A stretch of 64,000 bases of DNA from Bacteroidales bacterium UBA5219. GTDB lineage: Bacteria > Bacteroidota > Bacteroidia > Bacteroidales > ML635J-15. The position numbers and the translations under genes are program-made. Positions 20,320 to 59,571 of the stretch are shown piece after piece. The notes beneath the pieces were generated by a model, which searched no databases, was not told the DNA's origin, and saw nothing but the letters and a program-made list of their open reading frames with translations. Each line of letters opens with the position of its first letter. The first letter of the stretch is position 1. The DNA is taken from positions 74,401 to 138,400 of the forward strand of contig DHVB01000049.1 in the NCBI GenBank assembly GCA_002412425.1, given 5' to 3'.

Positions 20320-21489
20320 ATGTTAAATATTGCTTTATTTGGTCCTCCTGGAGCTGGAAAAGGAACTCAATCAAAAATTTTAATTGAAGAATATAATTTA
20401 TCCTACATTTCTACTGGTGAATTATTACGTAAAGAGATTAAAAATAAAACAAAATTAGGCTTAGAAGCTCAAAGTATTATTGCTGCTGGTGGTTTGGTTT
20501 CTGATGAAATTATTGTTCAAATTATTGAAAAAACAATTACAGAAAATCCCAATGCAAATGGTTTTTTGTTTGATGGTTTTCCTCGTACATATATTCAGGC
20601 TTATATACTCGAAGGTTTGATGATTAAATTAAACACCTCGTTAAATTGTTTGATAAGCTTAGCAGTTCCAGAAGAAGTTTCTGTTCAGCGTTTATTAGAA
20701 CGTGGTAGAACTTCGGGCAGAACAGACGATAACAAAACAGTTATTAGAAATCGATTAAACGAATATTACGAAAAAACAATACCTGTAATTAATTTTTACA
20801 AAGAAAAAGGAATTTTTTCAGAAGTTGACGGAACTCAATCTGTTGAGAATGTTAGAAAAGACATAAAAGCTATTGTTAAAAAAGAGTTGAGCAAACGTTT
20901 GTTAAATATTGTTTTATTTGGTTATCCTGGTTCTGGAAGAGGTTCGCAAGGCAGAGCTATTGCCAAAAAATACGGCTTAGAATATGTTGCTACAGGACCT
21001 ATGCTACACGAAGAAATTGAAAAAGGTAGCGAAATAGGAAAACAAATTAAAGATTTGTTTGACAATGGAAAACTAATTCCCGATGAGATTGTGGTTCCTT
21101 TGATTGAAAAGAAAATTGAAAATTCAAAAGGTGTAAAAGGTTTTATTTTTAAAGGTTTTCCTCGAACTCTTGTGCAATCCTATATTTTAGATGGCTTATT
21201 GAAAAAGCACTCTTCGTCAATTTCTAAAATTATTGAAATTGAAGTGCCTACTCTTGAATTAATTAAAAGATTAGACGAAAGAAGTAAAACTGAAAATCGC
21301 ATGCCTTATGACTCAAGTACTGCTAAAATTGTTCAAAGACTACAAGACCACCAAACCAAAACTGTTCCTGTTATAGAAAAATACAACGAATTGCACGGAG
21401 TTGTAAAAATTGACGGAATGGGCAGTTTCGACGAAGTTTTCAAAAGAATAAGTTTTGAAATCGAAAATGGATTCGAGAATCTGAAATAA
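20320..21489 (+). CDS. adk: Tandem-domain adenylate kinase (two complete short-type Adk domains in one polypeptide)
   Basis: Domain 1 (aa 1-190) has GPPGAGKGTQ, FLFDGFPRT and RGRTSGRTDDN. Domain 2 (aa 195-389) has GYPGSGRGSQ, FIFKGFPRT and RSKTENRMPYDS. Confidence 0.85.
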   Translation: MLNIALFGPPGAGKGTQSKILIEEYNLSYISTGELLRKEIKNKTKLGLEAQSIIAAGGLVSDEIIVQIIEKTITENPNANGFLFDGFPRTYIQAYILEGLMIKLNTSLNCLISLAVPEEVSVQRLLERGRTSGRTDDNKTVIRNRLNEYYEKTIPVINFYKEKGIFSEVDGTQSVENVRKDIKAIVKKELSKRLLNIVLFGYPGSGRGSQGRAIAKKYGLEYVATGPMLHEEIEKGSEIGKQIKDLFDNGKLIPDEIVVPLIEKKIENSKGVKGFIFKGFPRTLVQSYILDGLLKKHSSSISKIIEIEVPTLELIKRLDERSKTENRMPYDSSTAKIVQRLQDHQTKTVPVIEKYNELHGVVKIDGMGSFDEVFKRISFEIENGFENLK

Positions 21490-28139: not shown

Positions 28140-31100
28140 ATGCAAAATCTTAACAAACCAAACTACATTTTTGAAGTTAGCTGGGAAGTATGTAATAAAG
28201 TTGGCGGTATTCATACCGTAATTTCAACTAAAGCTCTTGAATTATCAAAAAATTGTGACCACCACATTCTTATTGGTCCTAGCATTTGGAGAGAAACAAA
28301 AGAGCATCCCGAATTTATTGAAGACAACTCCTTATTTGCGGATTGGAAACATCATTTAGAGTCAAAAAACACACATATTCATATTGGCTATTGGAATATT
28401 CCAGGAAAACCAAAGGTGTTTTTAATTGATTTTTCAAAATATATTAGCGAAAAAGATAGCATACTTGCAAAATTTTGGGAAGACTATAGATTAGACTCCT
28501 TAGCCGGACAGTGGGATTATATTGAACCTGCTTTATTTGGATATGCATCTGCCAAAATAATAGAAAGTTTTGTAAACTTTTACTTGTCTGTACACGACAA
28601 AATAGTCGCACATTTCCACGAATGGATGACCGGTACAGGAATTTTATATTTAAAATCGCAAATGCCACAAATAGCAACTGCTTTTACTACTCACGCAACT
28701 GCAATAGGGCGTAGCATTGCCGGCAACGGATTACCACTTTACAAAAATCTTTCTAATTATAACGGCGACATCTTAGCTAGTGAGTTTAATATAGTTTCTA
28801 AACAAAGTCTCGAAAAACTAAGTGCTCACAACGCTGATGTGTTTACAACCGTTAGCGAAATTACCGCCCAAGAATGTAGCCAACTTTTAAGCAAAGATGT
28901 TGATTTTGTTACGCCAAATGGTTTCGAAAATAATTTTGTGCCTCAACCAGCAGAATATAGCGAAAAAAGAAAAACTGCTCGCAAAAAAATTATTGAAGTT
29001 GCCCAAGCTTTGATGAATTATAAATATGAAAAAGAACCTGTAATTGTAGCAACTTCAGGACGTTACGAGTTTTCAAACAAAGGTTATGATTTGTTTATAA
29101 ATGCCTTGGCTGAATTAAATAAAAACACAAATTTAAAAGAAGAAGTTTTAGCATTAATTTTAGTTCCAGCAAATAACTATGGAGCTGTAAATCAGCTATA
29201 TAATATTTTAAACAATGTTGAGGGCGACACCAATATTGTAAATAATTTTTTAACTCATAATATTCACGATATTGAATTTGACCCAATTTCAAAAAGAATT
29301 TGCGAAAAACAATTATTCAACAAAGCTGAAAATAAAGTAAAAGTAATTTTTGTACCTACATATTTGAATGGAGATGACGGAATATTTGATATTAAATATT
29401 ACGATTTATTACCAGGCTTAGATTTAACTGCTTTTGTTTCTTATTATGAGCCTTGGGGTTACACTCCATTAGAATCTGTAGCTTTTGGAATTCCCACAAT
29501 AACAACAAGTTTAGCAGGATTTGGAAAATGGATGCAAGGAGTTTTAGATGAAAATGATAAAAGTGTTAAGGTTATTAACAGAACCGACGACAATGCAGAT
29601 GAAGTTGTTGCAGAAATAATTAATTATTTCAATTTTTATTTAGCTCTAAATCAAAAAGAAAGAGAAAATTTATCTAAATCTGCATTTGCTGCTTCTGACA
29701 ATGCTTTGTGGACTAATTTAATTAAAGAATATGAAAAAGCATATAGCTTTGCTTTAGAAAAAGTTAATGACCGTCAAGACGAATTTGTTAAACAAATTCC
29801 AAGCAGACCAATAAGCGAAACCTATGATAAGGAATCACACTCTCCTCAGTGGAGAAAACTTGAAGTAAAAACTCATGTAACCGACAGATTTAATGCTCTT
29901 ATTGCTATTTCTTTAAATTTATGGTGGACATGGAACAAACCAGCTAGAACTATGTTCAAATATATAGATCCTGAACTATGGATAGAACATGCGAAAAATC
30001 CTGTTACATTCTTAGAAAACGTCTCTATTTCAAGATTACAAGAATTAGAAAACGATAAATATTTCACTAATTTATACGATTCGGTTTGCAAAGAATTTTA
30101 CGAATATATTGCTAAGAAAAAAGAGAAAAAAGCTCCAAAAATAGCATACTTTAGCATGGAATATGGATTTGACGATAATTTAAAAATATTTTCTGGAGGT
30201 TTAGGAATTTTAGCTGGCGACTTTTTAAAAGAAGCTAGCGATACAAATACTGATTTAGTTGGAATTGGACTGCTTTACAGATATGGATATTTTAAGCAAA
30301 AAATTACTTCCATTGGAGAACAAAATGCAGAATATATCCCACAAAATTTTGACAAAATGCCAATCCAACCTGTTCGTGATGATAAAAACGAGCAAATGAA
30401 AATTATGGTTTATTTCCCAGGTAGAAATGTATATGCAAAAATTTGGAAAGCCAATATAGGAAGAATTCCGCTATACCTTTTAGATACTGATGTGGAAGAA
30501 AATCAAGAACAAGACAAATATATTACATCTCGTTTATACGGTGGCGATATAGAATTTAGATTTAAACAAGAAATGATATTGGGAGTTGGAGGTATCAGAG
30601 CTTTACAGGCTTTAAATATATACCCTGACGTATATCATTGCAACGAAGGACACGCAGCTTTCATAGGATTAGAAAGACTTAGAATTTTAAGAACAAGACG
30701 CAATTTAAAATTTGAAGAAGCATTAGAAATAATAAGAGCTTCTACCCTATTTACCACCCACACTCCTGTTCCTGCTGGTCACGACACTTTCGATGAAAAT
30801 TTAATGAGAACTTATATGTCTCACTATCCAGAAAGACTAAAAATTACTTGGGATGAAATGATGAGACTTGGAATGTTAAATAAAGGCGATAAATTCTCAA
30901 TGTCGTATTTAGCTGCTAATGTGTCTCAAGAAATAAATGGCGTTTCTATGTTGCATGGACAAGTTTCCAAAGAAATGTTTAAAGATTTATGGAAAGGTTA
31001 TTTCGCAGAAGAAAATCATGTTGGATATGTTACAAATGGCGTTCATTACCACACATGGACAGCTTCGGCATGGCAAAATTTATATTTAACAACTTTTGGA

Positions 31101-32369
31101 AAAGAATTTTTAAACGACTTATCTAATCAAAAATATTGGAGTAAAATTCAAGATGTTGATGATGAAATAATTTGGGATATTCGCCAAAAACAAAGAGCAA
31201 AACTTGTAAATTTTGTTAAAGATAAAGTTAGACGAAATTGGATAAGACGCTATGAAGACCCAAAAAACTTAGTTGCAGTTACAGAAAAAATTAATGAAAA
31301 TGTACTAACAATTGGTTTTGCTCGTAGATTTGCAACCTACAAAAGAGGAGATTTACTTTTGAAAAATCCTGAAAGATTAGCAAGAATTTTAAACAATCCT
31401 GAAAAACCTGTTCAAATTTTATTTGCAGGAAAAGCACACCCAAACGACAAAGCTGGTCAAGATTTAATTAAAAAGATTGTTCAAATATCAAAACAACCAG
31501 AATTTTTAGGTAAAATAATTTTTGTTGAAGATTATGACATTAATTTAGCAAAACATTTAGTACAAGGAGTTGACATTTGGCTAAACACACCAACTCGTCC
31601 TCAAGAAGCAAGCGGAACAAGCGGAATGAAAGCTGTTATGAATGGAGCTTTGCATTTCTCTGTATTAGATGGCTGGTGGGTAGAAGGATATAAAGAAGGT
31701 GCTGGTTGGGCTTTACCTGAAAAAAGAACCTATCAAGACCAAGAGTTGCAAAATGAATTGGACACACAAACAATTTACTCTCTATTAGAAAATGAAATTG
31801 TTCCATTATTTTATAAAAGAGACGAAAAAGGCATTCCTCACGATTGGATAAAATTTATTAAAAATTCTATCGCCACAATTGCTCCACAGTTCACAACCAA
31901 ACGAATGATAGATGACTATTTTGATAAATATTACAACAAGCTATATCAACGTAGCGAGTTGATGAAACCAAACCTTTACGAAATGGCATCTAAAATTGCA
32001 GATTGGAAAAAAAGCGTAAAAAGAGGTTGGAATGATTTAGAAATTGTAAGTGTGAAATTTCCTGATTTTGATAAACATCCTCTAAGCGTTAACGAAAACT
32101 TTACTGGCGAAATTGAAATAAATTTAAAAGGTCTTAGCTCAGACGATATTGGAGTTGAGGTTATTGTTACCGATGCTACAACCAATGGCTTTACAAAAAT
32201 TTATGCTATTCATCAAGCAGAATTAGTAGAAGTGAAAAATAAAATTGCAAGATATATTGTCAATTCAGCACCCAAAAAACCTGGATTTTACAATTATGCA
32301 ATTAGAGTTTATGCTAAAAACGATTTATTGCCATATAAACAAGATTCTGGCTTAGTGCTTTGGGCATAA
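28140..32369 (+). CDS. Fusion protein: GT3-type glycogen synthase (N-terminal) plus alpha-glucan phosphorylase GT35 (C-terminal)
   Basis: The N-terminal 560 aa has FEVSWEVCNKVGGIHTV and YYEPWGYTPLES (eukaryote-like GT3 synthase). Residues 570-1300 have the DUF3417-type start (LWWTWN) and a PLP-lysine context (EASGTSGMKAVMNGALHFSVLDGWW). The C-terminal 100-aa extra domain is unassigned. Confidence 0.85.
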   Translation: MQNLNKPNYIFEVSWEVCNKVGGIHTVISTKALELSKNCDHHILIGPSIWRETKEHPEFIEDNSLFADWKHHLESKNTHIHIGYWNIPGKPKVFLIDFSKYISEKDSILAKFWEDYRLDSLAGQWDYIEPALFGYASAKIIESFVNFYLSVHDKIVAHFHEWMTGTGILYLKSQMPQIATAFTTHATAIGRSIAGNGLPLYKNLSNYNGDILASEFNIVSKQSLEKLSAHNADVFTTVSEITAQECSQLLSKDVDFVTPNGFENNFVPQPAEYSEKRKTARKKIIEVAQALMNYKYEKEPVIVATSGRYEFSNKGYDLFINALAELNKNTNLKEEVLALILVPANNYGAVNQLYNILNNVEGDTNIVNNFLTHNIHDIEFDPISKRICEKQLFNKAENKVKVIFVPTYLNGDDGIFDIKYYDLLPGLDLTAFVSYYEPWGYTPLESVAFGIPTITTSLAGFGKWMQGVLDENDKSVKVINRTDDNADEVVAEIINYFNFYLALNQKERENLSKSAFAASDNALWTNLIKEYEKAYSFALEKVNDRQDEFVKQIPSRPISETYDKESHSPQWRKLEVKTHVTDRFNALIAISLNLWWTWNKPARTMFKYIDPELWIEHAKNPVTFLENVSISRLQELENDKYFTNLYDSVCKEFYEYIAKKKEKKAPKIAYFSMEYGFDDNLKIFSGGLGILAGDFLKEASDTNTDLVGIGLLYRYGYFKQKITSIGEQNAEYIPQNFDKMPIQPVRDDKNEQMKIMVYFPGRNVYAKIWKANIGRIPLYLLDTDVEENQEQDKYITSRLYGGDIEFRFKQEMILGVGGIRALQALNIYPDVYHCNEGHAAFIGLERLRILRTRRNLKFEEALEIIRASTLFTTHTPVPAGHDTFDENLMRTYMSHYPERLKITWDEMMRLGMLNKGDKFSMSYLAANVSQEINGVSMLHGQVSKEMFKDLWKGYFAEENHVGYVTNGVHYHTWTASAWQNLYLTTFGKEFLNDLSNQKYWSKIQDVDDEIIWDIRQKQRAKLVNFVKDKVRRNWIRRYEDPKNLVAVTEKINENVLTIGFARRFATYKRGDLLLKNPERLARILNNPEKPVQILFAGKAHPNDKAGQDLIKKIVQISKQPEFLGKIIFVEDYDINLAKHLVQGVDIWLNTPTRPQEASGTSGMKAVMNGALHFSVLDGWWVEGYKEGAGWALPEKRTYQDQELQNELDTQTIYSLLENEIVPLFYKRDEKGIPHDWIKFIKNSIATIAPQFTTKRMIDDYFDKYYNKLYQRSELMKPNLYEMASKIADWKKSVKRGWNDLEIVSVKFPDFDKHPLSVNENFTGEIEINLKGLSSDDIGVEVIVTDATTNGFTKIYAIHQAELVEVKNKIARYIVNSAPKKPGFYNYAIRVYAKNDLLPYKQDSGLVLWA

Positions 32370-37471: not shown

Positions 37472-40400
37472 ATGAAAAAATTAGTTTTCTTTTTCGCTTT
37501 AATATTAATTTCAAATTTAATATTTGCCCAAGCTTTTCCAACTGAACCAGATAGGTTTATAAAAAGCTTTAATTCAGAACTTGGATATACTGGTGAAGTT
37601 GCTAGCACTTCAAAAAATTTGAGCAAAGAATTTACTACTTTTTGGGAAACCGATAGTTTAAGTTTTCAAGAAAAAGAAAAATTTATTAGCACTGCAAACA
37701 ATATGGCTGCAAAGGGTTGCAAAGGCTATCCCGATTTTGTATGCTTAGCCGACAATAGAATGTGGTTTAGTAGAAAAGCTTTTGATAATTCACAATACGA
37801 AATATATGAAAAAGGAATTTTCGATATTTTAAATGCAGGCAAAAGACCAAAACTTAATGATTTATCTGATTATCTTTTAAGTTTCAATTATTTATTATCA
37901 AAGGATATTATTGCAAAAAACCCACGTACACATTGGAAAGTTGAAAATAATTCTTTTGAATTAAAATATGATAAAGGAATAAAAATTCAACTATCTAAAG
38001 TTAATCTCATTGGTTATCAAGGAGTTGATAGTTTAAAAATTTATAGAACAGATGCCGAATATTATCCTTCACAAAACTTATGGAAAGGAGTTGGCGGAAC
38101 TGTTGGCTGGGAACGTGTTGGCTATAGTTTAGATAGTATTCAAGCTCAACTTTCTAATTATCAAATTAATACAAAAAACGTAAGTCTAACTGCTGACTCC
38201 GTAACTTTTAACAACGTCATGTATATTAAAAAACCTATGCTTGGCAGATTAATTGACAAAACTGGAAATTTAGATAATCCTAAAAAATCAGATTATCCAA
38301 AATTTACTTCATACAATCAACATTATTATTTGAAAAATTTTGTTCCCGGAATAGATTACGAAGGAGGTTTTTCTGTTCATGGAAGTAGTTTTATAGCATC
38401 TGGAACAAAAGAAGAACCAGCTACAATGTTGCTTACAAAATCCGACAGTATATATATGGAAGCAAAGTCATTAGCTTTTTATTTAGACACAAAAATAATA
38501 ATTAGCGATCAATGTGCTATAAGCCTACATTTTGGCGAAGACTCTATATATCATCCTTACTTAACTTTTAAATATTATATCCACCCACGTTTTTTAGAAT
38601 TAATTCGTTCTAGAGAAGGTATGAATCAAGTTAATTATTCAAACTCATACCACCAAATCAATATGGATTTCACTTGGATGAAATGGTTTGTTGATAAATA
38701 CAAAATTGAGTTTACAACAATGAGAACTGCAGATTCTAAAGAACCAAACAAAGCTCTTTTCGAGTCGGCAGATTATTTTCGTTTAGAAAGATATAGAGAT
38801 ATTCAGAAAAAAGATGCACAACACCCTCTTGCTGTTATTACAAATTTTATTTCTTCTTTTTGGGGAAGTAATGATTTTCAATTAAACGACTTAGCAAAAT
38901 GGATGGGTTATAGTCCGCAACAAGTAGTGCAAATGGTTTTAGACTTAGCATACCGTGGATTTTTAAATTACGACCCTCAAAGCCAAGAAATTATAGTTTA
39001 TCCTAATGCTTGGACATTTTTACAAGCATATAAAAACCAAAAAGATTCTGACGTTATTCAATTTTATAGCGTAACTGACAGTAATAAAACAAATGCAGAA
39101 TTTAGTTTGATAAACTTTGATTTAAAAATTGATGGAATTCGTGAAATACATTTGTCTGATTCTCAAAACATAAGAGTTTTCCCTAACAATAAAAAAATTA
39201 CTCTTCAAAAAAATAGAACCTTTACTTTTGATGGAACAATACAAGCCGGGCAATTTTATTTTTACGGTAGCAACTACAAATTCGACTACAACAGATTTAT
39301 GATAGAATTAAATCAATGTGATTCTATGAAAATGGTTGCAGAAACAGACTTCTTAGATTCAGATGGAACTTACAAACCTGCTATTGTTAGAAATAAATTA
39401 GAACAAATAAATGGAGAGTTTTATATTGACGAACCATTGAACAAATCTGGAAGACAAGATTTCCCAGAATATCCCAAACTTATTTCAAACGAAAAAACTT
39501 ATGTTTACTATGATAGACCCGATGTTTATAACGGAATTTATAAACGAAACAATTTTTATTTTGAAGTTGACCCATTTGAGTTAGACAGTATAAAAGGTTA
39601 TTCAAGAGACAATTTGCGATTTAAAGGCACTCTTTATTCTGCCGATATTTTTCCACCTATAAAAGAAACTTTAGTATTACGTAAAAATGATTTCTCACTT
39701 GGCTTTAACACAAGAACAGGACCTGTTGGGTTACCGCTATACAGTGGCAAAGCAACATTTTGGCATGAAATAGATTTAAGTAACCAAGGACTTCGTGGGT
39801 CTGGAAGAATAGAATATCTCGCTGCAAATATGAATCCTGATTATTTGATATTTTTCCCAAAATTTATGGAAGGACATACTCCAAATTTTGAATTGAAAAA
39901 ACAATCAGCACCTATAGAATATCCTAAAGTTGAAGGAAGAGACAATACTTTAAGATGGAATGTTGAAGATGATGATTTTATGATTAAAAGAGACACCTCC
40001 AACTTTACAATGTACGAAGGAAAAGGTAGTTTTGAAGGAGATTTGAATTTAAAATCTTCAGGACTTGAAGGAGATGGAACAATGTTTATAGATAAAGCAA
40101 AAATAGCATCAGATTTAATAAGCTTTAAGCAAAATGTTTTTGATTCTGACACTGCAAATTTTGACCTTTACACAATTAACGCTCTAAATGTTGATTTTAA
40201 ATCAGATAACGTAAAAACACATATAGATTTTATAGACAGAAAAGGAGTGTTTAAATCAAACGGCGAAAATACTATTTGGACTTTTCCAAAAAACAAATAT
40301 ATGAGCGAAATGAACGAGATGACTTGGTATATGGATAAAGAAGAAATTGCTATTAGTGCCGACACAGATGTTTTGGAAAAGTTAGAAAAAGAAGGAGCAT

Positions 40401-41986
40401 TTCTTGAACCTGACGAATGGGAAGCAATGTTCTTAGAAGGTCCTAAATTTATATCTATTCACCCAAAACAAGACTCACTATATTTTGTCGCTCCAAGTGC
40501 TAGATATGATTATATAAATCATATTATTTATGCAGAAGGAGTTAAATTTATTAAAGTAGCTGATGCAACAATATATACTGAAGATGGAAATGTAACAATA
40601 GAAAAAGACGCTGTAATGCAAACATTACAAAATGCTAAAATTATTGCCAACTCTACCAGCAGACATCACACAGTCTATAATGCATCAGTAAATATTTATG
40701 GAAAGAAAAATTATAACGCTTTTGGAGATTATGATTTTATAAATTCTACTAAACAACCACAAACTATTCATTTAACAAAAATTGCAGTTGATGCTTCAGG
40801 ACAATCATATGGTACTGGCACAATTTTAGAACCTGACAATTTTACTATAAGCCCATATTATAAATATCAAGGAGATGTAACTTTTTATGCAAATAATCCT
40901 GAGCTAGAATTTAATGGTGCTACAAAAATTATTGATGACTGCGACACAACAATTTTTGGTTGGGTAAAATTCAAATCTTTCCTCGACCCTGAAGATATTT
41001 TCATAAAAATTGATTCCATAACATACAATATAAACAACACAAGATTATGTTCAGGTTTAGTTTTAGCAAATACCAACCAACTATACCCTGCATTTTTAAC
41101 AAGAAAACGAAACCAATACGACCAAGAAATTTTTTCTGCCAGCGGTTATTTGCACTACGACCAAGATGACGGAAAATTTATTATCGCACCAAAAGAAAAA
41201 ATCACCGAAACTTCTTTGCCAGGAAATTTAATTAGACGACATAAATCTATTTGTAATGTTTATGGAGAAGGAAAATTTGAATTCAGCAAAGATTTCGGAC
41301 TGTTCAAACCTAACGCTATTGGTAACTTTATGTGGTACCCAGAAACCGATACCACAGAAATAAATGTAAGTATGATTGCAGATGCTTACTTTAGTAATGC
41401 CGCATTAAAAGCAATGGCAGATAAACTAAACTCTACAGGAGGCTTGTCAGGACTAAACGTAAGAGATGATGTGTTTGAAAAAGCACTAATAGAATTTTTA
41501 GGAACTGAAAAGGCTGACCAATGGTTCTCTAATCTAAGTTTAGGTAATTACAATAAATTCCCAAAAGAATTAGAAAACAAACTTATTTTTACCGATTTAC
41601 AATTCTATTGGCATAGAGCTTTAACTTCCTTTGTACATTATGGACCTATTGGAATTGCTAATTTAGGTAAAGAACAAGTAAATAAATATGTTTTCGGTTT
41701 TATTAGAATAGAAAAATCTAGACGTGGCGATGTCTTTGAAATGCTTTTAGAGCCTGATTATTCAACTTGGTATTATATAAGATATAGTGCTGGAACATTT
41801 ACCATTATTTCTTCAGATGAAAACTTTAATAATATTGTTTACAACCAAAAGCCTAATCAAAGAGAAAAAACCGAAAATGGTGTCTTTTATCAATACGGCT
41901 TAGGAAGTTCTTCATATATGAAGAGATTTAAAAAAGATATGTACAAATTTTTCAAAATTGACGAAAACATAAATCTTGATGAATAA
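37472..41986 (+). CDS. Very large secreted hypothetical protein (1504 aa)
   Basis: Signal peptide (FFFALILISNLIFAQA). Uninterrupted 4.5-kb ORF with no recognisable catalytic motif. Its end overlaps the GWxTD gene start by 8 nt. Confidence 0.6.
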   Translation: MKKLVFFFALILISNLIFAQAFPTEPDRFIKSFNSELGYTGEVASTSKNLSKEFTTFWETDSLSFQEKEKFISTANNMAAKGCKGYPDFVCLADNRMWFSRKAFDNSQYEIYEKGIFDILNAGKRPKLNDLSDYLLSFNYLLSKDIIAKNPRTHWKVENNSFELKYDKGIKIQLSKVNLIGYQGVDSLKIYRTDAEYYPSQNLWKGVGGTVGWERVGYSLDSIQAQLSNYQINTKNVSLTADSVTFNNVMYIKKPMLGRLIDKTGNLDNPKKSDYPKFTSYNQHYYLKNFVPGIDYEGGFSVHGSSFIASGTKEEPATMLLTKSDSIYMEAKSLAFYLDTKIIISDQCAISLHFGEDSIYHPYLTFKYYIHPRFLELIRSREGMNQVNYSNSYHQINMDFTWMKWFVDKYKIEFTTMRTADSKEPNKALFESADYFRLERYRDIQKKDAQHPLAVITNFISSFWGSNDFQLNDLAKWMGYSPQQVVQMVLDLAYRGFLNYDPQSQEIIVYPNAWTFLQAYKNQKDSDVIQFYSVTDSNKTNAEFSLINFDLKIDGIREIHLSDSQNIRVFPNNKKITLQKNRTFTFDGTIQAGQFYFYGSNYKFDYNRFMIELNQCDSMKMVAETDFLDSDGTYKPAIVRNKLEQINGEFYIDEPLNKSGRQDFPEYPKLISNEKTYVYYDRPDVYNGIYKRNNFYFEVDPFELDSIKGYSRDNLRFKGTLYSADIFPPIKETLVLRKNDFSLGFNTRTGPVGLPLYSGKATFWHEIDLSNQGLRGSGRIEYLAANMNPDYLIFFPKFMEGHTPNFELKKQSAPIEYPKVEGRDNTLRWNVEDDDFMIKRDTSNFTMYEGKGSFEGDLNLKSSGLEGDGTMFIDKAKIASDLISFKQNVFDSDTANFDLYTINALNVDFKSDNVKTHIDFIDRKGVFKSNGENTIWTFPKNKYMSEMNEMTWYMDKEEIAISADTDVLEKLEKEGAFLEPDEWEAMFLEGPKFISIHPKQDSLYFVAPSARYDYINHIIYAEGVKFIKVADATIYTEDGNVTIEKDAVMQTLQNAKIIANSTSRHHTVYNASVNIYGKKNYNAFGDYDFINSTKQPQTIHLTKIAVDASGQSYGTGTILEPDNFTISPYYKYQGDVTFYANNPELEFNGATKIIDDCDTTIFGWVKFKSFLDPEDIFIKIDSITYNINNTRLCSGLVLANTNQLYPAFLTRKRNQYDQEIFSASGYLHYDQDDGKFIIAPKEKITETSLPGNLIRRHKSICNVYGEGKFEFSKDFGLFKPNAIGNFMWYPETDTTEINVSMIADAYFSNAALKAMADKLNSTGGLSGLNVRDDVFEKALIEFLGTEKADQWFSNLSLGNYNKFPKELENKLIFTDLQFYWHRALTSFVHYGPIGIANLGKEQVNKYVFGFIRIEKSRRGDVFEMLLEPDYSTWYYIRYSAGTFTIISSDENFNNIVYNQKPNQREKTENGVFYQYGLGSSSYMKRFKKDMYKFFKIDENINLDE

Positions 41987-43263: not shown

Positions 43264-44007
43264 ATGGAAAATTTTATTTTTGGACTACATCCTGTAAACG
43301 AAGCAATTAAATCTGGAAAAGAAATTGATAAAGTTTTGGTTAAAAAAAACTTAACTGGAAATATTGCACTAAAATTAGTTTCAGAAATTCGTCAACAAGG
43401 AATTACTATACAATATGTGCCTCAAGAAAAACTTGATAAAATTTGTAAACACAATCATCAAGGCATAATTGCTTATGTGTCGCCAATTAAATACCAAAAT
43501 TTAGAAGAAGTTATCATCAAAATTCAAGATGAAAATAAAACTCCATTAATAATAATTTTAGATGGAGTTACAGATGTAAGAAATTTTGGAGCTATTGCTC
43601 GCTCTTGCGAATGTGCGGGAGCTTCTGCAATAGTAATTCCAACAAGTGGCAGTGTAAGAATTAGCGATGAAGCAATTAAAACCTCTGCTGGAGCATTGTA
43701 TAATATTCCAATTTGCAAAGTTGAAAATTTAATAGATGCTGTTTTGCTTTTAAATCAAATGAATATTGAAGTTGTTGCTGTTACGGAAAAAGCCGAAAGA
43801 TTAATTTACGAACTCGACCTAACAACAGCTTGTGCTTTAATTTTAGGTGCCGAAGACAAAGGAATTTCAAACTCTCTTATAAAACGAGCCGACAAAAAAG
43901 CCAAAATTCCATTATATGGAAAAACATCTTCTTTAAATGTTTCAGTGTCTGCGGCTTTGGCAGTTTACGAAGCTATACGACAAAGAATGAATTCAGTTGA
44001 AAGTTAA
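43264..44007 (+). CDS. rlmB: 23S rRNA (guanosine-2'-O)-methyltransferase, SpoU/TrmH family (RlmB-like)
   Basis: The start at MENFIFGLHPVNEAIKSG (ATG 43264) avoids a 167-nt overlap with the upstream gene. SpoU motifs LDGVTDVRNFGAIARS, LILGAEDKGIS and SLNVSVSAALAVYE. The stop codon lies inside repeat 43993-44074. Confidence 0.85.
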   Translation: MENFIFGLHPVNEAIKSGKEIDKVLVKKNLTGNIALKLVSEIRQQGITIQYVPQEKLDKICKHNHQGIIAYVSPIKYQNLEEVIIKIQDENKTPLIIILDGVTDVRNFGAIARSCECAGASAIVIPTSGSVRISDEAIKTSAGALYNIPICKVENLIDAVLLLNQMNIEVVAVTEKAERLIYELDLTTACALILGAEDKGISNSLIKRADKKAKIPLYGKTSSLNVSVSAALAVYEAIRQRMNSVES

Positions 44008-44074
44008 AAGTTGAAAGTTAAAAGAGGCTGACGCGTCTAACAAAGTGCGACTTTCGACTTTTAACTTTTAACTC
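43993..44074 (+). repeat. Mosaic word-doublet element forming a 23-24-bp stem, exactly filling the rlmB/Trx-PKD convergent gap
   Basis: TCAGTTGAAAGTTAAAAGTTGAAAGTTAAAAG, then AGGCTGACGCGTCTAACAAAGTGCGA, then CTTTCGACTTTTAACTTTTAACT. The arms pair with only G-U wobbles. It contains the rlmB stop (44005-44007) and abuts the minus-strand gene's stop (44073-44075). Confidence 0.85.
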
Positions 44075-46193
44075 ATCTTATAATGCTGATCTTTTCCGTT
44101 TTAATCTTACCTTTAGTAAATATTCTAGCGTAATAAATTCCTGAAGCAATTCCGTTAGTATTAAATTCAATTACTTCGCTTCCAGCTTCAGCAAATTTCA
44201 TTTGTAGCATTTTTCCTGTTCTGTCAAAAATTTCAACAAAATCGCCTTTATCGAAAGACAATGAGTTCACAATAAACAAATTATCTCCGCATGGATTTGG
44301 ATAAACTGTTATTCCAGTTTCAATTTCTTCGTCTTCAATTCCAACAAGGCAAGTCATTGGTCTTATTCCTGTAGATGTTGAAATTTGATAAGCAGAAGGA
44401 GAAGAATACCATTCTTCGTTTTTATATACAAATAAAGTATTGTCGTTGCCATGTCCTCGATTTGGAGCCATTCCCACTACAAATTCGTCGCCAGCAGCAT
44501 AGTTAATTGAATATCCTAAATAAAATGGACCATCAACTTTAAGAGGCTCGTCAAACATTATTACTTGAAAATAATTTTGTCTCAAAGTTCTCAAAAGCAC
44601 TTTTTGACTTGATAAAACAGTTGTAGGTTTTGGGTCTGCACCATCCCAAGTAATAAATCTAATATAAGCATTATCCGAACCATATGACAATTTCATTACA
44701 GGAACAATAATTCCTCTTATCTCATTAAAAGTATGAAAATCATAATAATCGGCATACATGCTAATTCTATCACTATTTTGTCCGCCATAATAACCTGTCA
44801 TTCCATTTATTTGCATAGCTATTGGTTGTTCGCCTTGTTTAAAATTACCTATTGTATCGCAAACTTCGCCAACAAAAGAGTCGTAAACAACAATATAATC
44901 TTTCTTGGTTAACATCGAAGAACCATTAATATTTCCAACATTTAGAGTAACGTCAAAAAAGCCTGTGTTTTGATAACGAACTCCATTTGGTTGTAATTGA
45001 GTATTAGAGCTTGATGGTTCTCCTCCTTCAAAATACCAAGACCAAAACATTGGATTATTTGTTGATAAATCCTCAAAAAAGACTGGAGTATCACGTTTAA
45101 TCAAGCGATTAGAAGTTGTAAAATTGGCAACAGGAGCATCTGGACCAACTTCTGGAATAACTCTAATGTAATTTTCAATTAACAAAGTATCATAGCCTTG
45201 AGAGTTACGAACAATTAACTGAACATTATATTCACCTGGTGTATTATAAACAATATTTTGAGGATTTTGTGCTGCAGAATTTGCAGGCAAACCACCTTCA
45301 AACTCCCATTTCCATTGGAATGGAAAATCCCAACTTAGGTCTGTAAAGTTTACAGAATTACCAACAATAACAATTACTTGATCAGCAGTAAACCAAGCTG
45401 TTGGAGTAGTATCAGCAATCTCATAAACATGAACATATTTAGTTTTAACTATCTCATCACTATTTCCAAATTCATTTGCAACTTTAAGTTTTACCTTATG
45501 ATAACCAGGAACATTATAAATAATTTCAGGTGGATTTTGACCATTAAAACTATCTGGAGTGCCGTTTTCAAACTCCCAAAGCCAAGTTGCAATAGGATTT
45601 TGCGATAAGTCAGAAAAAATAACTCCTGTATTTACAGGAAGCAACAAAGGGTCGCCAGAAAAATCAGCAATGGGCCAATCTTCTGGACAAGCATTTCTGT
45701 TAATTCCAATTTCTTGAAGACCTTGAACAGTATTTATATCAACTTCTTGGTCATCATCCCAAATAACACTTCTATCTGGTTTAATTAAAATTTTAGTTGG
45801 ATAAGCTTCTATTCCATAATAGTTAACGACAGCACCTCCATGCCCCTCAACAGCACTACAAAGAGGGAAAATAGTATTATGTTCATCTCTATAATTAATA
45901 GCTATTTCATTGGTTACACCCTGAGAAAAAAGACCAAGAACTACTAATTCAAATTCATTACAACCAAAACTTGAATATATATTATTTATCGTCGGGACAG
46001 ACGCAATACAGCCAGATCAACCAGCTAATATAAATTCTATATAAACATGTTTACCTGCATCTAAATAAGTGAAAAGATTATGCTCAACACCATCGAGATC
46101 TGTTATAGTAAAATCCACAGCTTGAGTTGGTTGTTGCGCAAAACTTACGTATGACAAGGCTAACAAAGATAATAAACAAAATAACTTTTTCAT
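44073..46193 (-). CDS. Thioredoxin-fold (TlpA/redoxin-like) + 3x PKD + T9SS sorting-domain protein with one in-frame TGA at the CxxC position (candidate selenoprotein; alternatively a nonsense pseudogene)
   Basis: ORFs 46017-46229 and 44073-45647 are in the same frame (offset 1944 = 3x648). Hand translation of 45648-46016 shows no stop. The reading is MKKLFCLLSLLALSYVSFAQ...GKHVYIEFILAG-TGA-SGCIASVPTINNIY...IEAYPTKILIKPDRSVIWDD, followed by three PKD repeats and the CTD VYPNPCGDNLFIV...GIYYARI. Confidence 0.55.
45990..46003 (-). promoter_or_regulatory. Candidate SECIS-like stem-loop downstream of the in-frame UGA
   Basis: The mRNA reads UGA-UCUGGCUGUAUUG-CGUC-UGUCCC-GACG. This is a 4-bp GC-rich stem with a 6-nt loop containing GU. 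The loop starts 17 nt after the UGA, and weak AU/GU pairing can extend the lower stem. Confidence 0.3.
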
Positions 46194-46262
46194 ATTAATA
46201 AAAATTTTACCATTATTTGCAATTTTCAAAGATAGTAAATTAATTAATATAAACGTTTTGAA

Positions 46263-54421: not shown

Positions 54422-56422
54422 CTATTCATACACCAACTTCTCAACTTTTACCAATTCTCCATCTACAAATAGATTGCAGATATAAACTCCTGGTTTCCAG
54501 CCTTTTGTTGGTATTGTGGTGGTTTCGTTAGTAATTGGAATTATAGATTGTAGATGACCATTTAGCCCGGCTATTTTAATTTCGGCATTTTGGTAATTTG
54601 GCAGTGTTAGTTTTACATAAAAATCGTTGTTACTGGGGTTGGGGAAGATTTGGAGTTTGTAGTCAATATTAAACAAATCTGCTTTAGTTGTGTTTTCGGT
54701 TGTAAATGACCATGTGTCTGACCATTCAGATTCGTCTATTGCACTTGTGACTTTTACTTTCCAATAATAAGTTGTGTTTGGAAGTAAATTGTTTAAATAC
54801 ATAATATTTCCATAAAAAATTTGCAAGTATTCTTCGTATTCGTTGAAATCAGGTGTAGTGCTAATCCATATGGTGTAGCTGTTGATATGTTGAATGTTTT
54901 GCCAGTACAACTTTGTATTATTTATTGCAACTTGTGTTGCTTGGTTGCTTGGCTCTATAAGTTGTGGTTTTACTAAAGTTTCAAATGAAAATACAGAACT
55001 CCAAATTGAGGTATCATTTTCATTTATGTATCTTGTTCTCCAATAATATTTTGTATTGAATTTCAACAAGTCGGTTTGAACCATGTTTGCATAATTACTG
55101 TGTTCTAAAGTTTCTGTTTGTTCTGGCAAAAACTCAGGGTTTTGTGATAGTTGATATTGGTATTTTGTAATGCCAGATAGAAATTCCGCTTTTAAGTTTA
55201 TTTTTAAGTTTTGATTTGCAGATAAATCTTCTGGGCTAATCAGTGCTGGGGCGGTAACTGTAGTGAAACTTCTTACAGGTGTATAATTAGAAGTATCCAA
55301 AGAGTGATATGCTCTTACTCGCCAGTAATAAGTTGTGCCAAATAATAAGTTTTGTAAATTTACTGCTGAATTTGGTGTTTCATACTGCATATACAAATTA
55401 GAAGAAAAATCTGGGACAGTATCAAGTTCAAAAATATAGCCAATTATATTACCAATTGACAAAACACTAATACTTGCATTAGTACTAATATTTGTTGCTT
55501 GGTTTAGAGGTAAAATTTGGTGAACACCGCACATACTAAACGTAAACACAGATGACCAATCTGATGTGTCAATAGAGTTTATAGCTCTTGCACGCCAGTA
55601 ATGTTGTTTTTCAAAGTAAAAGTCTCCAACTGAAACTATATCAGAATTATCAGTTTCTGCAATTTCAAATTCTCTTGGATTTGTAAAAGCTAAAGTTGTA
55701 TCTAGTTCAAAAACATAACGCAAAGGTTGATCATATCTTTCTATTTTTAAGTTGCTAATTGAATTTGTAAAATTAAAATTATTTGGAGAAACTAGTGTTG
55801 GCGAACAAGGGATATTTATGTAATTCCATTGATGATAAGACCAACTGGGAGCAGTGTCAAGCTCTGTAATACATTTTGCTCTGACATAATTATTTGAACA
55901 AAAATAAAAAGGAGCATTAATTACTATATAATTTTCCTCATAAGTGGTATCTCTAAGCAATAATGGAGAATCAAAAGTCGCAATAGTATCAATTTCCCAC
56001 CATCGTTCTATACTACACATTATTGTATTTTCAGTTGCTATTAAGTTGCCAATAGGATTAATTGTTACAACAACATATCCTCGTGGTACTGTAATTCGCG
56101 ATATCGTATTGCTCCAGTCAGATGTGTCAGTATTATTAATAGCTCGTGCTTTTAAAAAGTATTCTGTTTCAAACTTCAATAATGGTAAAATATAAGGTAG
56201 AGTTTCAGAATAATCAACATATACATCTACTAAAAAAGAAGCATCTGTTGAAATTTGTATTTCATATTTATTTGCCCCATTAACTGCACCAAAAGAAAGA
56301 GATGGATTACATGGATTTGATGAAAACGTATTAATTAAATTCGGTGCATCTAGTTGAGCATTTGCAATATTATTAAATAATATAATAATAAATAAAATAT
56401 ATAAATTTTTCTTTAACATCAT
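54422..56422 (-). CDS. T9SS cargo: six tandem Fn3-like modules plus C-terminal sorting domain
   Basis: Signal peptide. Repeated 90-100-aa modules ending ...YYWRVRA..DTS.WS...SFTT (6 copies, 2 degenerate). CTD IFPNPSNNDFYVKL...GVYICNL. Confidence 0.65.
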   Translation of the reverse strand: MMLKKNLYILFIIILFNNIANAQLDAPNLINTFSSNPCNPSLSFGAVNGANKYEIQISTDASFLVDVYVDYSETLPYILPLLKFETEYFLKARAINNTDTSDWSNTISRITVPRGYVVVTINPIGNLIATENTIMCSIERWWEIDTIATFDSPLLLRDTTYEENYIVINAPFYFCSNNYVRAKCITELDTAPSWSYHQWNYINIPCSPTLVSPNNFNFTNSISNLKIERYDQPLRYVFELDTTLAFTNPREFEIAETDNSDIVSVGDFYFEKQHYWRARAINSIDTSDWSSVFTFSMCGVHQILPLNQATNISTNASISVLSIGNIIGYIFELDTVPDFSSNLYMQYETPNSAVNLQNLLFGTTYYWRVRAYHSLDTSNYTPVRSFTTVTAPALISPEDLSANQNLKINLKAEFLSGITKYQYQLSQNPEFLPEQTETLEHSNYANMVQTDLLKFNTKYYWRTRYINENDTSIWSSVFSFETLVKPQLIEPSNQATQVAINNTKLYWQNIQHINSYTIWISTTPDFNEYEEYLQIFYGNIMYLNNLLPNTTYYWKVKVTSAIDESEWSDTWSFTTENTTKADLFNIDYKLQIFPNPSNNDFYVKLTLPNYQNAEIKIAGLNGHLQSIIPITNETTTIPTKGWKPGVYICNLFVDGELVKVEKLVYE

Positions 56423-58044
56423 TTTTTTATCAGTATTTTTTTTGATTGAACTATTTCATTATTGAAAATCAAATTTACAATTGCAAAATCATAATTCCAG
56501 TTTGAACTTGAAATATTTATTTTATTTTCGCCTTTATTTAAATCTATAGAGTTTATTGCTTGCCCTGTTGGTAATATGATTTGTATAGAAGCACTGTCAT
56601 AGTTTTCGGGGACAAAACATTCAATATTTATTTTTTCACTTGCTGGATTAGGAAAAATATTTAAGGTATTTTGTTTTAATTCTTCCGATACATTTGTGAT
56701 TAGTAGGATTTTAATTTCTTTTTCTATAGTTTTTATACATTGTCCATCTGTAACAGTAAGTTGCACATTATATGTTCCGGGATAATTAAAAGTATGAGTA
56801 GGACATCTTTCATTGCTAGTTGAAACACCATCACCAAAATCCCATTGCCAAGAATCTGCATAAGCATTATTGTTGTAGAAGTTTACTATTGCTTGTCCAT
56901 TAACTAAATAAAACTCATTTTCAGACACTCCTGTTTGTTGCCAAGCATGTAAAACAGGTCGCAAGTACTTACAATCGTTTGCTGGTGGCATATACCATTT
57001 TGCCATACCTTTGCTATGTATTGAGTCTCCATTTAAAACATTTACATATGTATAATTTCCAACTACTATTAGTGTGTCCTGAAAAACTTTTAATCCATAC
57101 ACAGTTCCTGATGTCCCTCCACCAACCGAGTGTATTTTTTCGCCATCCCATCGTCCAATAAAATTAATCCATGTTGTATCTATTACTGTAACATTCATAA
57201 ATCCGCCAAAATATAAATCACCTCTATACATTTCCATAACTCCATGCCAAACATCTCCCATAACACCCATTTCTAATGGATACCATTTGAAACCATCATA
57301 TTTTGCAATGCAGTGAGATTCAATAGTATCTCCTACATAAAAAAATGAACCTCCTGTGTATAAAAAATTATTTACACTATCCACAAGCATTGCATTTACC
57401 CAGCCTTGTGGTGTGCCAGGGTATTGTAGCCAAGTATCATACCCAACCCTTTTCCATAATCCATAATTTGTTCCAACAAGCAATTCGTCATTGTACTCAA
57501 TAATGCTGGCAGCATAATTTGCTTCTATATTTTCCAAATATTCCCAAGTATTCCCATCAGTTACTAATACTTTGGCTCCAAATTCACAGCTTCCTAGTGC
57601 AAATAAACTATCATTTATTACTTTTAAGCTAAAAATAAATCCACCTATTGGCGGATTAGGTGGTAGCCATTGGTTTCCATCCCAAACTGAGAAATTGGCA
57701 GTACTTGTGTTGCCATTTGGATTCCAACCAGCATTTCTACTGCCTGCATATAGTTTGTTTTTATATGTTGTTAAACAAGAAGGATATCCTGAATTAGAGT
57801 AAGTTTGTTGGAAGCCTGACCATTGATAATTGTTAAATTTTGCTACACCTTTAATTGGTTTGTTGCCAATATTTTGAAATGCGCCTCCTATTATAAAAGA
57901 ATCTTCATCAATGTGAATGCTCTCAATTACTAAACTACCATTCCAAATTGTATCACCAAAATAAGTGTGCCATGATTGAGAATATGATATTTTTATGAAA
58001 GATAAAAAGAATATTATAAGTGTTAAATGTTTTGATTTTACCAT
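56419..58044 (-). CDS. T9SS cargo: propeller-like N-terminal region + PKD domain + C-terminal sorting domain
   Basis: Signal peptide. PKD segment (WQWDFGDGVSTSNERCPTHTFNYPGTYNVQLTVTDG). CTD IFPNPASEKINIEC. 4-nt overlap (ATGA) with the downstream gene. Confidence 0.6.
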   Translation of the reverse strand: MVKSKHLTLIIFFLSFIKISYSQSWHTYFGDTIWNGSLVIESIHIDEDSFIIGGAFQNIGNKPIKGVAKFNNYQWSGFQQTYSNSGYPSCLTTYKNKLYAGSRNAGWNPNGNTSTANFSVWDGNQWLPPNPPIGGFIFSLKVINDSLFALGSCEFGAKVLVTDGNTWEYLENIEANYAASIIEYNDELLVGTNYGLWKRVGYDTWLQYPGTPQGWVNAMLVDSVNNFLYTGGSFFYVGDTIESHCIAKYDGFKWYPLEMGVMGDVWHGVMEMYRGDLYFGGFMNVTVIDTTWINFIGRWDGEKIHSVGGGTSGTVYGLKVFQDTLIVVGNYTYVNVLNGDSIHSKGMAKWYMPPANDCKYLRPVLHAWQQTGVSENEFYLVNGQAIVNFYNNNAYADSWQWDFGDGVSTSNERCPTHTFNYPGTYNVQLTVTDGQCIKTIEKEIKILLITNVSEELKQNTLNIFPNPASEKINIECFVPENYDSASIQIILPTGQAINSIDLNKGENKINISSSNWNYDFAIVNLIFNNEIVQSKKILIKK

Positions 58045-58094
58045 AAAATTTTTAATTTAATTGTCTTGTTTCAAAATTAATTAATTTATTGAAC

Positions 58095-59555
58095 TTATTT
58101 ATAAATAATAAACTTTTTGCTTATTGTTCCATGTTCTTTTGTTATTAAAGTGTAAGTATAAATACCTGGGTGTAAATTTTTTGTGTCAATATTTAATTGA
58201 TTGTCGCCTTGGTATAGATTATATATAGCTATAACTTTACCCATAGCATCATAAATTTCCATAATTCCATCAGTATCTTCAGGTAAATAATATGGGATTA
58301 TGGTGTAATCGCTTGCAGGATTAGGATAAATATCAATTTTACTATTTTCGCAAACTGTGTTTACAAAACTTTCACCACACTCACAATCCTCTACTACACA
58401 ACCACAACTATCAGTTTTTACAAGCCACATAACTTGTGGGTCGAAAGCAACTCCTGCCATTATAAAACCATTGTCGGGGGTTTGTTTGATGGAAAACAAA
58501 GACCTTTGACCTATTGATTCTCCTGGTTCGTAATAATGTTTTGATATGCTATCTCCACTTGGCGAGAGGCGAAAGAGACCAACAATGTTATCATCTTTAA
58601 CTGTTGTAAATATTTCACCATTGTTTGCAACGGCAATTGTACCTATGCTGGTGTATTCTGCTCTAATACCATACAATTTATTCCAAACCTCTTCAAACTC
58701 TGAATTTAACTTAATAATACCGTATTTACGATTATAAAAACTGGCAGATATTGGATCGGTTACATAAGCACTCAATGCAAATACATACTCATTATTTTCA
58801 GTTCTTATTATTGTATTGATACTGCCATCAGGATACAAAGGATTCCCGTAATGTTTTGTCCATTGCTTATTTCCTTCACTGTCAGTTTTAATTAAATAAC
58901 CATCACCATTTCCTATACCATTGGTTAAGCCACCAATTAAATATCCACCGTCATCAGTGGCAATAATGCAAAGACCTATATCCCTATCACTTGTTCCGTA
59001 TTTTTTATACCACTCCATATTACCATTACTATCTGTTTTTACTAATAACACATCTCCATCTGGGTCGCTTTCATCAGTGCTGCCAACTAATGCATAACCC
59101 CCATCAGCTGTTTGGATATGATTATAAAAAGCTGTAAAATCAGGATTGTCAAAATAGAGTTTTGTCCATAATGTATCAAAGTTTTGATCAAATTTGGTTA
59201 ACATACAAGCTCTGTGTTCATTAAAAGTGTTCGTACGATGACCAGACAAAGAATAACCTCCATCATTATTGATTATAAAAGAATTATTACCTCCATGATA
59301 GTAGTCAAATAAATCGTCTCCATATGATTTTTCCCATAATTTATTACCCAAATTATCAAATCCGACAATTAGTATCTCAACTTTCCACACACTATTGTAG
59401 TCGCCACCTACAACAATATAACCATCTTCAGTAATTAAAACATTTCTCATTACAGGGGTGTTCCTTGTAAATGTTTTGTTAAAAATAACTGTTTGAGCAT
59501 TGACTGTAGTACTAATAGTTATTATTAACATTAATATATAATGTAGAATTTTCAT
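58095..59555 (-). CDS. T9SS cargo: repeat (DGGY-type, propeller-like) protein with C-terminal sorting domain
   Basis: Signal peptide. Recurrent motif every 45-55 aa (TEDGYIVVGG, NNDGGYSLSGH, TADGGYALVGST, TDDGGYLIGGLT, TPDNGFIMAGVA). CTD IYPNPASDYTIIPY...GIYTYTL. Confidence 0.55.
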   Translation of the reverse strand: MKILHYILMLIITISTTVNAQTVIFNKTFTRNTPVMRNVLITEDGYIVVGGDYNSVWKVEILIVGFDNLGNKLWEKSYGDDLFDYYHGGNNSFIINNDGGYSLSGHRTNTFNEHRACMLTKFDQNFDTLWTKLYFDNPDFTAFYNHIQTADGGYALVGSTDESDPDGDVLLVKTDSNGNMEWYKKYGTSDRDIGLCIIATDDGGYLIGGLTNGIGNGDGYLIKTDSEGNKQWTKHYGNPLYPDGSINTIIRTENNEYVFALSAYVTDPISASFYNRKYGIIKLNSEFEEVWNKLYGIRAEYTSIGTIAVANNGEIFTTVKDDNIVGLFRLSPSGDSISKHYYEPGESIGQRSLFSIKQTPDNGFIMAGVAFDPQVMWLVKTDSCGCVVEDCECGESFVNTVCENSKIDIYPNPASDYTIIPYYLPEDTDGIMEIYDAMGKVIAIYNLYQGDNQLNIDTKNLHPGIYTYTLITKEHGTISKKFIIYK

Positions 59556-59571
59556 TTTAAACAGTTACTTA

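Follow-up and report, generated by a model that had tools for sequence, protein, structure and literature searches.

The question raised by this locus is whether an in-frame TGA codon (46017-46019), which falls on the first Cys position of a thioredoxin-fold CxxC motif, ends a short protein or encodes selenocysteine (Sec) in a long one. The locus lies on a stretch of 64,000 nucleotides, hereafter called the window, from Bacteroidales bacterium UBA5219 (GenBank assembly GCA_002412425.1, contig DHVB01000049.1, positions 74,401 to 138,400 of the forward strand), and it had been singled out in a first-pass annotation as a candidate selenoprotein secreted by the type IX secretion system (T9SS). The analysis indicates that it is, very probably, a genuine selenoprotein gene with one product of 706 aa. 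This reading is carried by the conservation of the TGA, by a hairpin that is conserved in TGA-containing forms only and by the position of the codon in the protein.

On the minus strand, translation of the window from 46229 to 44073 gives a frame with a single internal stop, the TGA in question, and a terminal TGA (44073-44075). The list of open reading frames (ORFs) splits the gene into a 70-aa ORF (46017-46229) and a 524-aa ORF (44073-45647) which share this frame, in agreement with the first-pass annotation; the latter ORF begins at the earliest start codon downstream of the TGA, so that no ATG, GTG or TTG lies between the two, as had also been stated. Read-through of the whole frame, initially delimited as 44073-46229, was upheld, but not its start: by comparison with the orthologs, the true start is ATG 46193 (MKKLF...) and not TTG 46229, because all of them begin with MKK(L/I). 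With this start, the product has 706 aa and Sec would be residue 59. In public records, the gene appears as a hypothetical ORF of 57-70 aa and a "PKD domain-containing protein" of 524-624 aa. Residues 60-183, which are located upstream of any annotated start, include ILIKPDR, SVIWDDDQEVDINTVQGLQEIGINR and DEHNTIFPLCSAVEGHGGAVVNYYGIEAYPTK.

Within the species, 47 indexed blocks of public assemblies contain the 70-aa ORF that ends at the TGA, and the TGA is present in at least 22 independent contigs. A base-by-base comparison covered ten contigs of the species, which come from different samples, for the most part metagenomes of anaerobic digesters and fermentations. The gene has 0-37 substitutions in them, codon 59 is invariably TGA, and neither a frameshift nor a second internal stop occurs. 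Additional disabling lesions, which the first-pass annotation had envisaged, were thus not found in these ten contigs, and the assemblies agree on the TGA. In the last 523 codons, the same-species contigs show 32 synonymous versus 13 non-synonymous changes. Comparison of the window with four other species gave a ratio of non-synonymous to synonymous substitution rates (dN/dS) of 0.24-0.47 for codons 60-183, which indicates that the stretch past the UGA is translated. This stretch (45645-46016) evolves faster than the rest of the gene, where dN/dS is 0.11-0.22.

The same codon is found in other species. Indeed, (i) a protein search returned two relatives whose gene calls start just past the TGA column and whose DNA has an in-frame TGA there, together with a Cys homolog with the motif HW-C-SN-C, and (ii) a scan of one genome per species of the GTDB yielded 80 loci (8 with TGA, 4 syntenic with Cys and 68 remoter). 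In total, the TGA occurs at the same column in nine other species of Bacteroidales, namely eight GTDB representatives, all metagenome-assembled genomes (MAGs), and one metagenome contig, which makes ten species in all. The codons flanking the TGA vary between species (AG-U-SG, EG-U-GS, GG-U-PS, TT-U-GG, KG-U-GT), and the motif variants of the TGA-form MAGs include GUGSC, GUPSC, TUGGC and GUGTC. The complete TGA-form genes read through to 698-705 aa, with a T9SS domain at the end, and one gene runs off its contig; the protein of a sister species (locus L004) is 81% identical to that of the window. The four syntenic Cys orthologs (703-707 aa) have TGC or TGT at the TGA column, and the remoter homologs, from Flavobacteriales, Saprospiraceae, Chitinophagales and others, have CxxC in 66 of 68 cases and a degenerate motif in the other two. 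The first-pass annotation had asked whether orthologs carry Cys or TGA at this column, and both forms exist. The initial competing explanation, a sequencing or assembly error or a recent TGT/TGC to TGA nonsense mutation in what would be a pseudogene, has on its side that TGA is one base from TGT or TGC and that gene callers split the gene in two, but it is effectively refuted by an identical TGA in at least 22 contigs of independent samples and in nine other species, by the lack of further lesions, by a dN/dS below 1 downstream of the TGA and by the synonymous conservation, in TGA forms only, of the adjacent hairpin described below.

A neighbour-joining tree of 12 full-length orthologs did not resolve the monophyly of the Sec forms. 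In this tree, the Cys group L013/L015 joins the Sec group L006-L011, a placement that could possibly reflect one Cys-to-Sec change followed by reversion, or else poor resolution. Among the remoter homologs, a 612-aa protein (L063, 10001-10432) has lost the CxxC (FFSAGSPSSQQ) and is presumably redox-inactive. Three MAGs labelled Methanobacteriota archaeon, Comamonadaceae and Pseudohongiellaceae (L037, L041 and L080, respectively) also hold Bacteroidota-type T9SS thioredoxin-like homologs; these contigs are probably mis-binned.

The first-pass annotation had held that TGA is an ordinary stop elsewhere in the window, and this proved correct under code 11 (standard bacterial). Indeed, 5 of the 39 long ORFs of the window end in TGA, among them tpiA, nadC and the DUF4783 gene with their ATGA overlaps; TGG serves as the Trp codon 239 times in the window ORFs; and no internal TGA was found in any other long ORF of the window. 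A scan of the window and of the clade loci for other sense-strand TGA read-through candidates found this gene only. A genome-wide reassignment of TGA to Trp or Gly (codes 4 or 25), in which the residue would not be Sec, could be suggested by the low G+C content (30.6% in the window) and by one public call of this gene made with code 4, with W at both TGAs, but it is effectively refuted by these stop and Trp codons and by homologs which align a catalytic Cys there, and not Trp or Gly. The call in question (P0137, same gene, Logan/ENA contigs) was made with translation table 4, so that Trp replaces Sec as well as the final stop in a product of 710 aa (...AGWPGC..., ...IIRWVKS); it comes from a strain with Pro, not Ser, adjoining Sec.

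It had also been proposed that TGA-containing orthologs might conserve a hairpin downstream of the codon, and such a hairpin is present in the TGA forms only. RNAalifold gives one consensus structure, with a CGUC/GACG stem and a 6-nt loop, UGUCCC. It is encoded by codons +5 to +9 (GCG TCT (G/A)TC CCG ACG), where all 119 same-amino-acid pairs among TGA forms share the codon, as against 54% gene-wide; this is the top of 623 five-codon windows for synonymous conservation. The Cys orthologs have similar residues at +5 to +9, encoded by different codons, and show no synonymous conservation. These codons are rare in the genome (GCG 3%, CCG 4%, ACG 2% and GTC 4% of their amino acid), and the 14-mer of the hairpin occurs once in the window and is otherwise confined to TGA-form loci. 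The stem extends to 6 bp in 6 of the 10 species via G-C, G-U or U-A pairs, and in a single species a U-A pair of the stem is replaced by U-G. The published model of the bacterial Sec insertion sequence (SECIS) has a loop of 3-9 nt, a stem of 4-16 bp, a G in the first two loop positions, a distance of 16-37 nt from the UGA and a minimum free energy of at most -7.5 kcal/mol (PMC13188914). The present hairpin agrees with it in part, in its 6-nt loop, its 4-bp stem and its spacing of 17 nt from UGA to loop; a G occupies loop position 2 in eight of ten species, including that of the window, with G-U at loop positions 2-3, and -7.5 kcal/mol is reached in five of ten species, but not in the window (-5.5 kcal/mol). 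On these features, the hairpin is a candidate for a minimal, lineage-specific SECIS, a function that would follow from its position and conservation.

The position of the TGA within the protein is that of a catalytic residue. The first-pass annotation had recognised a signal peptide and the start of a TlpA/redoxin-like domain, with the TGA on the first, nucleophilic Cys (U-S-G-C), and both points are corroborated, the signal peptide by inspection of the sequence and the domain by profile comparison. Indeed, the profile of the N-terminal domain matches ResA (PDB 4nmu, E=1.9e-21) over the whole fold (profile positions 6-146), with CgpC on CKPC and the cis-Pro loop YPT on LPT, and the CxxC of ResA and of the homologs lines up with U-S-G-C. 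Since both the CxxC and the cis-Pro loop align with ResA, U59 is predicted to be nucleophilic and C62 resolving. The match to Pfam Redoxin is weak (17.6 bits, cut-off 26.6), and the best NCBIfam matches, ResA, StoA and TlpA, are all sub-threshold (ResA: 45.5 bits, cut-off 170, E=7e-12). Because these family cut-offs are not reached, the domain is assigned, from its sequence, to a divergent branch of the superfamily and is not a ResA equivalog. A Cys homolog (P0003) passes AhpC-TSA (34.2 bits, cut-off 26). A comparison of the protein with the selenoprotein-specific NCBIfam models gave no match. Two further cysteines, Cys78 and Cys169, are invariant across the family and may form a structural disulfide.

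The remainder of the protein, said at first to be intact with three PKD domains, a domain of about 170 aa and a Por-type sorting domain, is indeed an open frame in which Pfam and NCBIfam scans recovered this arrangement: three PKD stretches (Pfam, E=2e-23) and a C-terminal sorting domain detected by both Por_Secre_tail PF18962 (40.1 bits, cut-off 27) and TIGR04183 (43.2 bits, cut-off 23). For the beta-rich domain between them, a homolog search returned two fragments only, with no Pfam or NCBIfam match, and the AlphaFold2 model is all-beta with low confidence (pLDDT 37.5), too poor for fold comparison. As regards the secretion system itself, PorV is encoded on the same contig, outside the window and approximately 4 kb from its start, and is the sole component of the T9SS machinery seen; the window itself encodes three other Por_Secre_tail proteins. 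A cluster of T9SS cargo genes occupies 54422-63834 (minus strand) and encodes proteins of 666, 486 and 1420 aa with Por_Secre_tail, together with a 541-aa PKD protein. The coordinates of the features of the gene are collected in Table 1.

Table 1. Features of the candidate selenoprotein gene and of its surroundings (positions in the window).
Feature	Position	Strand	Remarks
Whole selenoprotein gene (very probable)	44073..46193	-	706 codons + stop, with one in-frame UGA; same layout in orthologs
Signal peptide MKKLFCLLSLLALSYVSFA, residues 1-19	46137..46193	-	Predicted cleavage after SFA; by inspection; kept in all orthologs
ResA/TlpA-like thioredoxin-fold domain, residues 20-173	45675..46136	-	ResA 4nmu E=1.9e-21; NCBIfam ResA E=7e-12
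UGA read as Sec (predicted), residue 59, first position of U-S-G-C	46017..46019	-	Conserved column
TGT, Cys62, predicted resolving Cys of UxxC	46008..46010	-	Invariant column
Core hairpin of the candidate SECIS (CGUC/GACG stem, UGUCCC loop)	45990..46003	-	Starts 13 nt past the UGA
PKD domain 1	45420..45674	-	Pfam scan
PKD domain 2	45153..45404	-	Pfam scan
PKD domain 3	44880..45134	-	Pfam scan
Beta-rich domain, ~180 aa	44340..44879	-	No Pfam/NCBIfam match; AlphaFold2 all-beta, pLDDT 37.5
T9SS type A C-terminal sorting domain	44076..44312	-	PF18962, TIGR04183
Candidate promoter TATCTTTG, match to the presumed Bacteroidetes -7 motif	46227..46234	-	34 nt upstream of the ATG; from sequence reading
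24-nt inverted repeat between convergent gene ends	43995..44073	.	Probable terminator

Genes for Sec insertion are encoded in a close relative. A protein search with E. coli SelA returned enterobacterial clusters only. Metagenome contigs were scanned with an A+T-biased back-translation of the motif GDKLLGGPQAGI, which is conserved between the SelA proteins of E. coli and Aquifex, and at least 120 loci were obtained. Among the matches listed, the tetranucleotide composition most similar to that of the window is that of a JGI contig (L300) attributed to the sister species (r=0.982 with the window, 0.988 with the sister-species locus L004); this contig encodes a SelA (517 bits on TIGR00474, cut-off 268) and the start of a SelB (truncated, 306 bits on TIGR00475, cut-off 242.25). 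Four NCBI accessions, assigned to Bacteroidales MAGs, have an identical SelA, and the nadC located two genes from the TGA gene in L004 belongs to the same four accession blocks, 188-1420 numbers apart from SelA. In the assembly GCA_012512075.1, selA and selB are encoded on JAAZEU010000027.1 (SelA: TIGR00474, 517 bits; SelB: Pfam GTP_EFTU and a weak Beta-barrel_SelB), and the DUF4783-nadC-BrkB-TGA gene locus is encoded on JAAZEU010000006.1, where it matches L004 at 99.9% identity, UGA and hairpin included. The pairing of selA/selB with the TGA gene recurs in three further MAG accession blocks. A close relative with an orthologous TGA gene has, in consequence, dedicated Sec-insertion genes, and from it we infer the presence of Sec machinery in the window species itself.

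Two observations concern the surroundings of these sel genes. In the sister species (L341, 6362-13389, on JAAZEU010000027.1 of GCA_012512075.1), selA-selB are located directly downstream of genes for two TlpA-like Cys proteins of approximately 480 aa (DUF4369/DUF5106/AhpC-TSA) and upstream of dnaE, a thioredoxin gene and sufE; that sel genes adjoin genes for thiol-disulfide oxidoreductases may be no coincidence. Another selA-selB operon (L309, 1693-5184) was found on a metagenome contig with 29.5% G+C and a tetranucleotide correlation of r=0.978 to the window. This locus and L325 were considered as the selA-selB genes of the window species on account of their similar composition, and were not assigned to it, as their SelA proteins are only 53-54% identical to that of the sister species.

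Several points weigh against a selenoprotein. The case is built on sequence data. The hairpin is minimal: the core by itself has an energy of -3 kcal/mol, and constrained folding of the window sequence gives at best -5.5, short of the -7.5 threshold; two species have A in place of G at loop position 2; covariation is weak, or uninformative, because the core stem hardly varies; and an Rfam scan, at both the gathering threshold and a permissive E-value, gave no match to a SECIS or tRNA-Sec family. The evaluation with a SECIS model suggested in the first-pass annotation thus had a divided outcome, favourable for loop size, minimal stem and spacing, and unfavourable for the energy in the window and in half of the species and, in two species, for the G of the loop. 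As to the machinery, neither the window nor 10 kb past one of its ends nor 83 other loci yielded selA, selB, selD or tRNA-Sec (the window and the 83 loci were searched with ARAGORN and by tblastn with E. coli SelA, SelB and SelD), and no selD or tRNA-Sec turned up among the fetched loci of the clade. Finally, the link between selAB and the TGA gene depends on MAG binning, though in four MAGs.

Two alternatives draw on these points. In the first, the family would truly consist of selenoproteins and the window species would have lost Sec decoding, leaving a truncated product here. The sel genes that were not located for this species would agree with such a loss, as would the fact that, among the matches listed, no SelA is closer than 54% identity to the sister-species SelA. 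However, the SelA scan gave at least 120 loci, so that absence among the matches listed means little, and the gene, its TGA and its hairpin are intact across strains, with the excess of synonymous changes in the last 523 codons (32 versus 13) reported above; we consider this loss improbable. In the second, the hairpin would drive read-through or termination without Sec, either by insertion of Trp or Cys by a near-cognate tRNA or by production of a 58-residue peptide and a re-initiated protein. A hairpin smaller and weaker than the standard bacterial SECIS model, and again the sel genes not located for the species in the window, the 10 kb and the 83 loci, could be invoked here. Yet the UGA stands exactly on the nucleophilic Cys of the CxxC, which is the classic Sec position, start codons and conserved sites of initiation are absent after the TGA, a re-initiated product would be without the signal peptide that a T9SS cargo needs, and the sister species has a dedicated selA-selB operon; only a small chance is given to this mechanism.

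If the gene encodes a selenoprotein, the most likely mechanism is the following. A SelB-type elongation factor carrying Sec-tRNA(Sec) would recognise the small hairpin 13 nt past the UGA (a G+C stem of 4-6 bp with the loop UGUCCC) and Sec would be inserted at residue 59. Homology places this residue at the first, nucleophilic position of the U-x-x-C motif in a domain akin to the thiol-disulfide oxidoreductases ResA and TlpA. The signal peptide would take the precursor across the inner membrane via the Sec translocon, and the sorting domain would pass it to the T9SS, so that the redox domain would end on the cell surface or outside the cell, with the three PKD domains and the beta-rich domain probably serving as spacer or binding modules. 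In an anaerobic habitat, the enzyme could then use its selenol for thiol/disulfide exchange with substrates outside the cell.

Part of this has precedents. UxxC selenoproteins of the redoxin/TlpA/Prx-like thiol:disulfide oxidoreductase type are already catalogued as predicted families (Zhang and colleagues; PMC13188914; PMC1794560). The present protein resembles them in its thioredoxin fold, in the replacement of the first Cys of CxxC by Sec, in its widespread Cys homologs, in a SECIS candidate located in the coding region right after the UGA and in its occurrence in anaerobes. The catalogued proteins are, however, mostly single-domain and come from Deltaproteobacteria, Clostridia and marine metagenomes, whereas the present one is a 706-aa multidomain T9SS cargo of Bacteroidales. 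With ResA, TlpA and StoA (Bacillus ResA, PDB 1ST9, 4NMU), it shares the best profile match over the fold, the aligned CxxC and cis-Pro, and export from the cytoplasm. ResA and TlpA have Cys, are anchored in the membrane or located in the periplasm and obtain their electrons from CcdA or DsbD, while here a predicted Sec, two extra conserved Cys (78 and 169) and a predicted exit from the periplasm via the T9SS are found. To our knowledge, no reductant system has been described beyond the periplasm for T9SS-exported proteins.

The Cys-type T9SS thioredoxin-like cargo proteins of Flavobacteriales, Saprospiraceae and Chitinophagales (L016-L083; P0003) share with the present protein the signal peptide, the N-terminal motif AVDFTVTD..G..H.LF, the thioredoxin-like domain, FGCN with the C-terminal Cys, and the T9SS sorting domain. 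They are mostly of ~256-274 aa (thioredoxin and sorting domain), have CGPC and are without the conserved hairpin, whereas the PKD and beta-rich domains occur only in the 700-aa subfamily of Bacteroidales, and Sec only in part of that subfamily. Compared with SECIS elements of the E. coli fdhF type and the consensus, the hairpin is likewise directly 3' of the UGA within the ORF, with 17 nt to the apical loop, a small loop and G-U at positions 2-3; it differs in its conserved stem of 4 bp (6 bp in six of ten species), in an energy above the threshold in half of the species and in the G to A change of the loop in two.

With regard to the host, Sec decoding was not detected in Bacteroidetes in a 2006 survey, and a 2016 survey reported it in six non-Bacteroidales Bacteroidetes strains only, with 0-1 selenoproteins each. 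Bacteroidota are not mentioned in a recent review (PMC13188914), in the deep-Sep paper or in the BSepDB database paper, and the literature searched contained no relevant link between selenoproteins and type IX secretion. The initial impression that this architecture had not been described holds for the T9SS/PKD arrangement in Bacteroidales, but not for UxxC selenoproteins of the redoxin/TlpA type, which are catalogued (PMC13188914). What is new is the T9SS/PKD architecture, the export route, the Bacteroidales host and the atypically small SECIS candidate; the UxxC thioredoxin-fold chemistry is known. With some reservation, we favour the view that this is the first selenoprotein delivered by the T9SS to the surface or the medium, that the lineage keeps Sec decoding largely for an extracellular selenol redox enzyme, that its SECIS is unusually small and lineage-specific (4-6 bp stem, loop UGUCCC) and that Sec is used in an abundant digester Bacteroidales.

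The gene is widespread in a very abundant anaerobic-digester bacterium (the neighbouring nadC is seen on 447 contigs), where it is, on the selenoprotein reading, mis-annotated as a short ORF and a cut-down "PKD domain-containing protein". Bacteroidota have been thought to be nearly without Sec, and the present clade shows a dedicated selA-selB operon together with a conserved, very probable selenoprotein. An extracellular T9SS-exported selenoenzyme, if confirmed, would raise the question of the role of a selenol outside the cell of an anaerobe and of the source of its re-reduction. The hairpin, minimal and perfectly conserved, could offer a convenient example for broadening the models of bacterial SECIS elements, whose energy criterion excludes it.

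Regarding the ends of the gene, the candidate promoter of Table 1 is based on TAnnTTTG, which we take to be the Bacteroidetes -7 promoter motif. The inverted repeat at the opposite end is 92% complementary, contains A/T-rich heptamer-like units and is located between the ends of a SpoU methylase gene and of the selenoprotein gene, where it is probably a bidirectional terminator. Elsewhere, the window encodes a protein of 1409 aa in which glycogen synthase, DUF3417 and alpha-glucan phosphorylase are fused (28140-32369), a protein of 389 aa with a tandem pair of adenylate kinase domains (20320-21489) and an ORF of 1504 aa without a Pfam match at E<=1e-5 (37472-41986). A small toxin-antitoxin pair composed of Gp49 (HigB-like) and HTH_3 (HigA-like) proteins adjoins a Na+/H+ exchanger gene at approximately 10700-11300 (L099, 671-1254).

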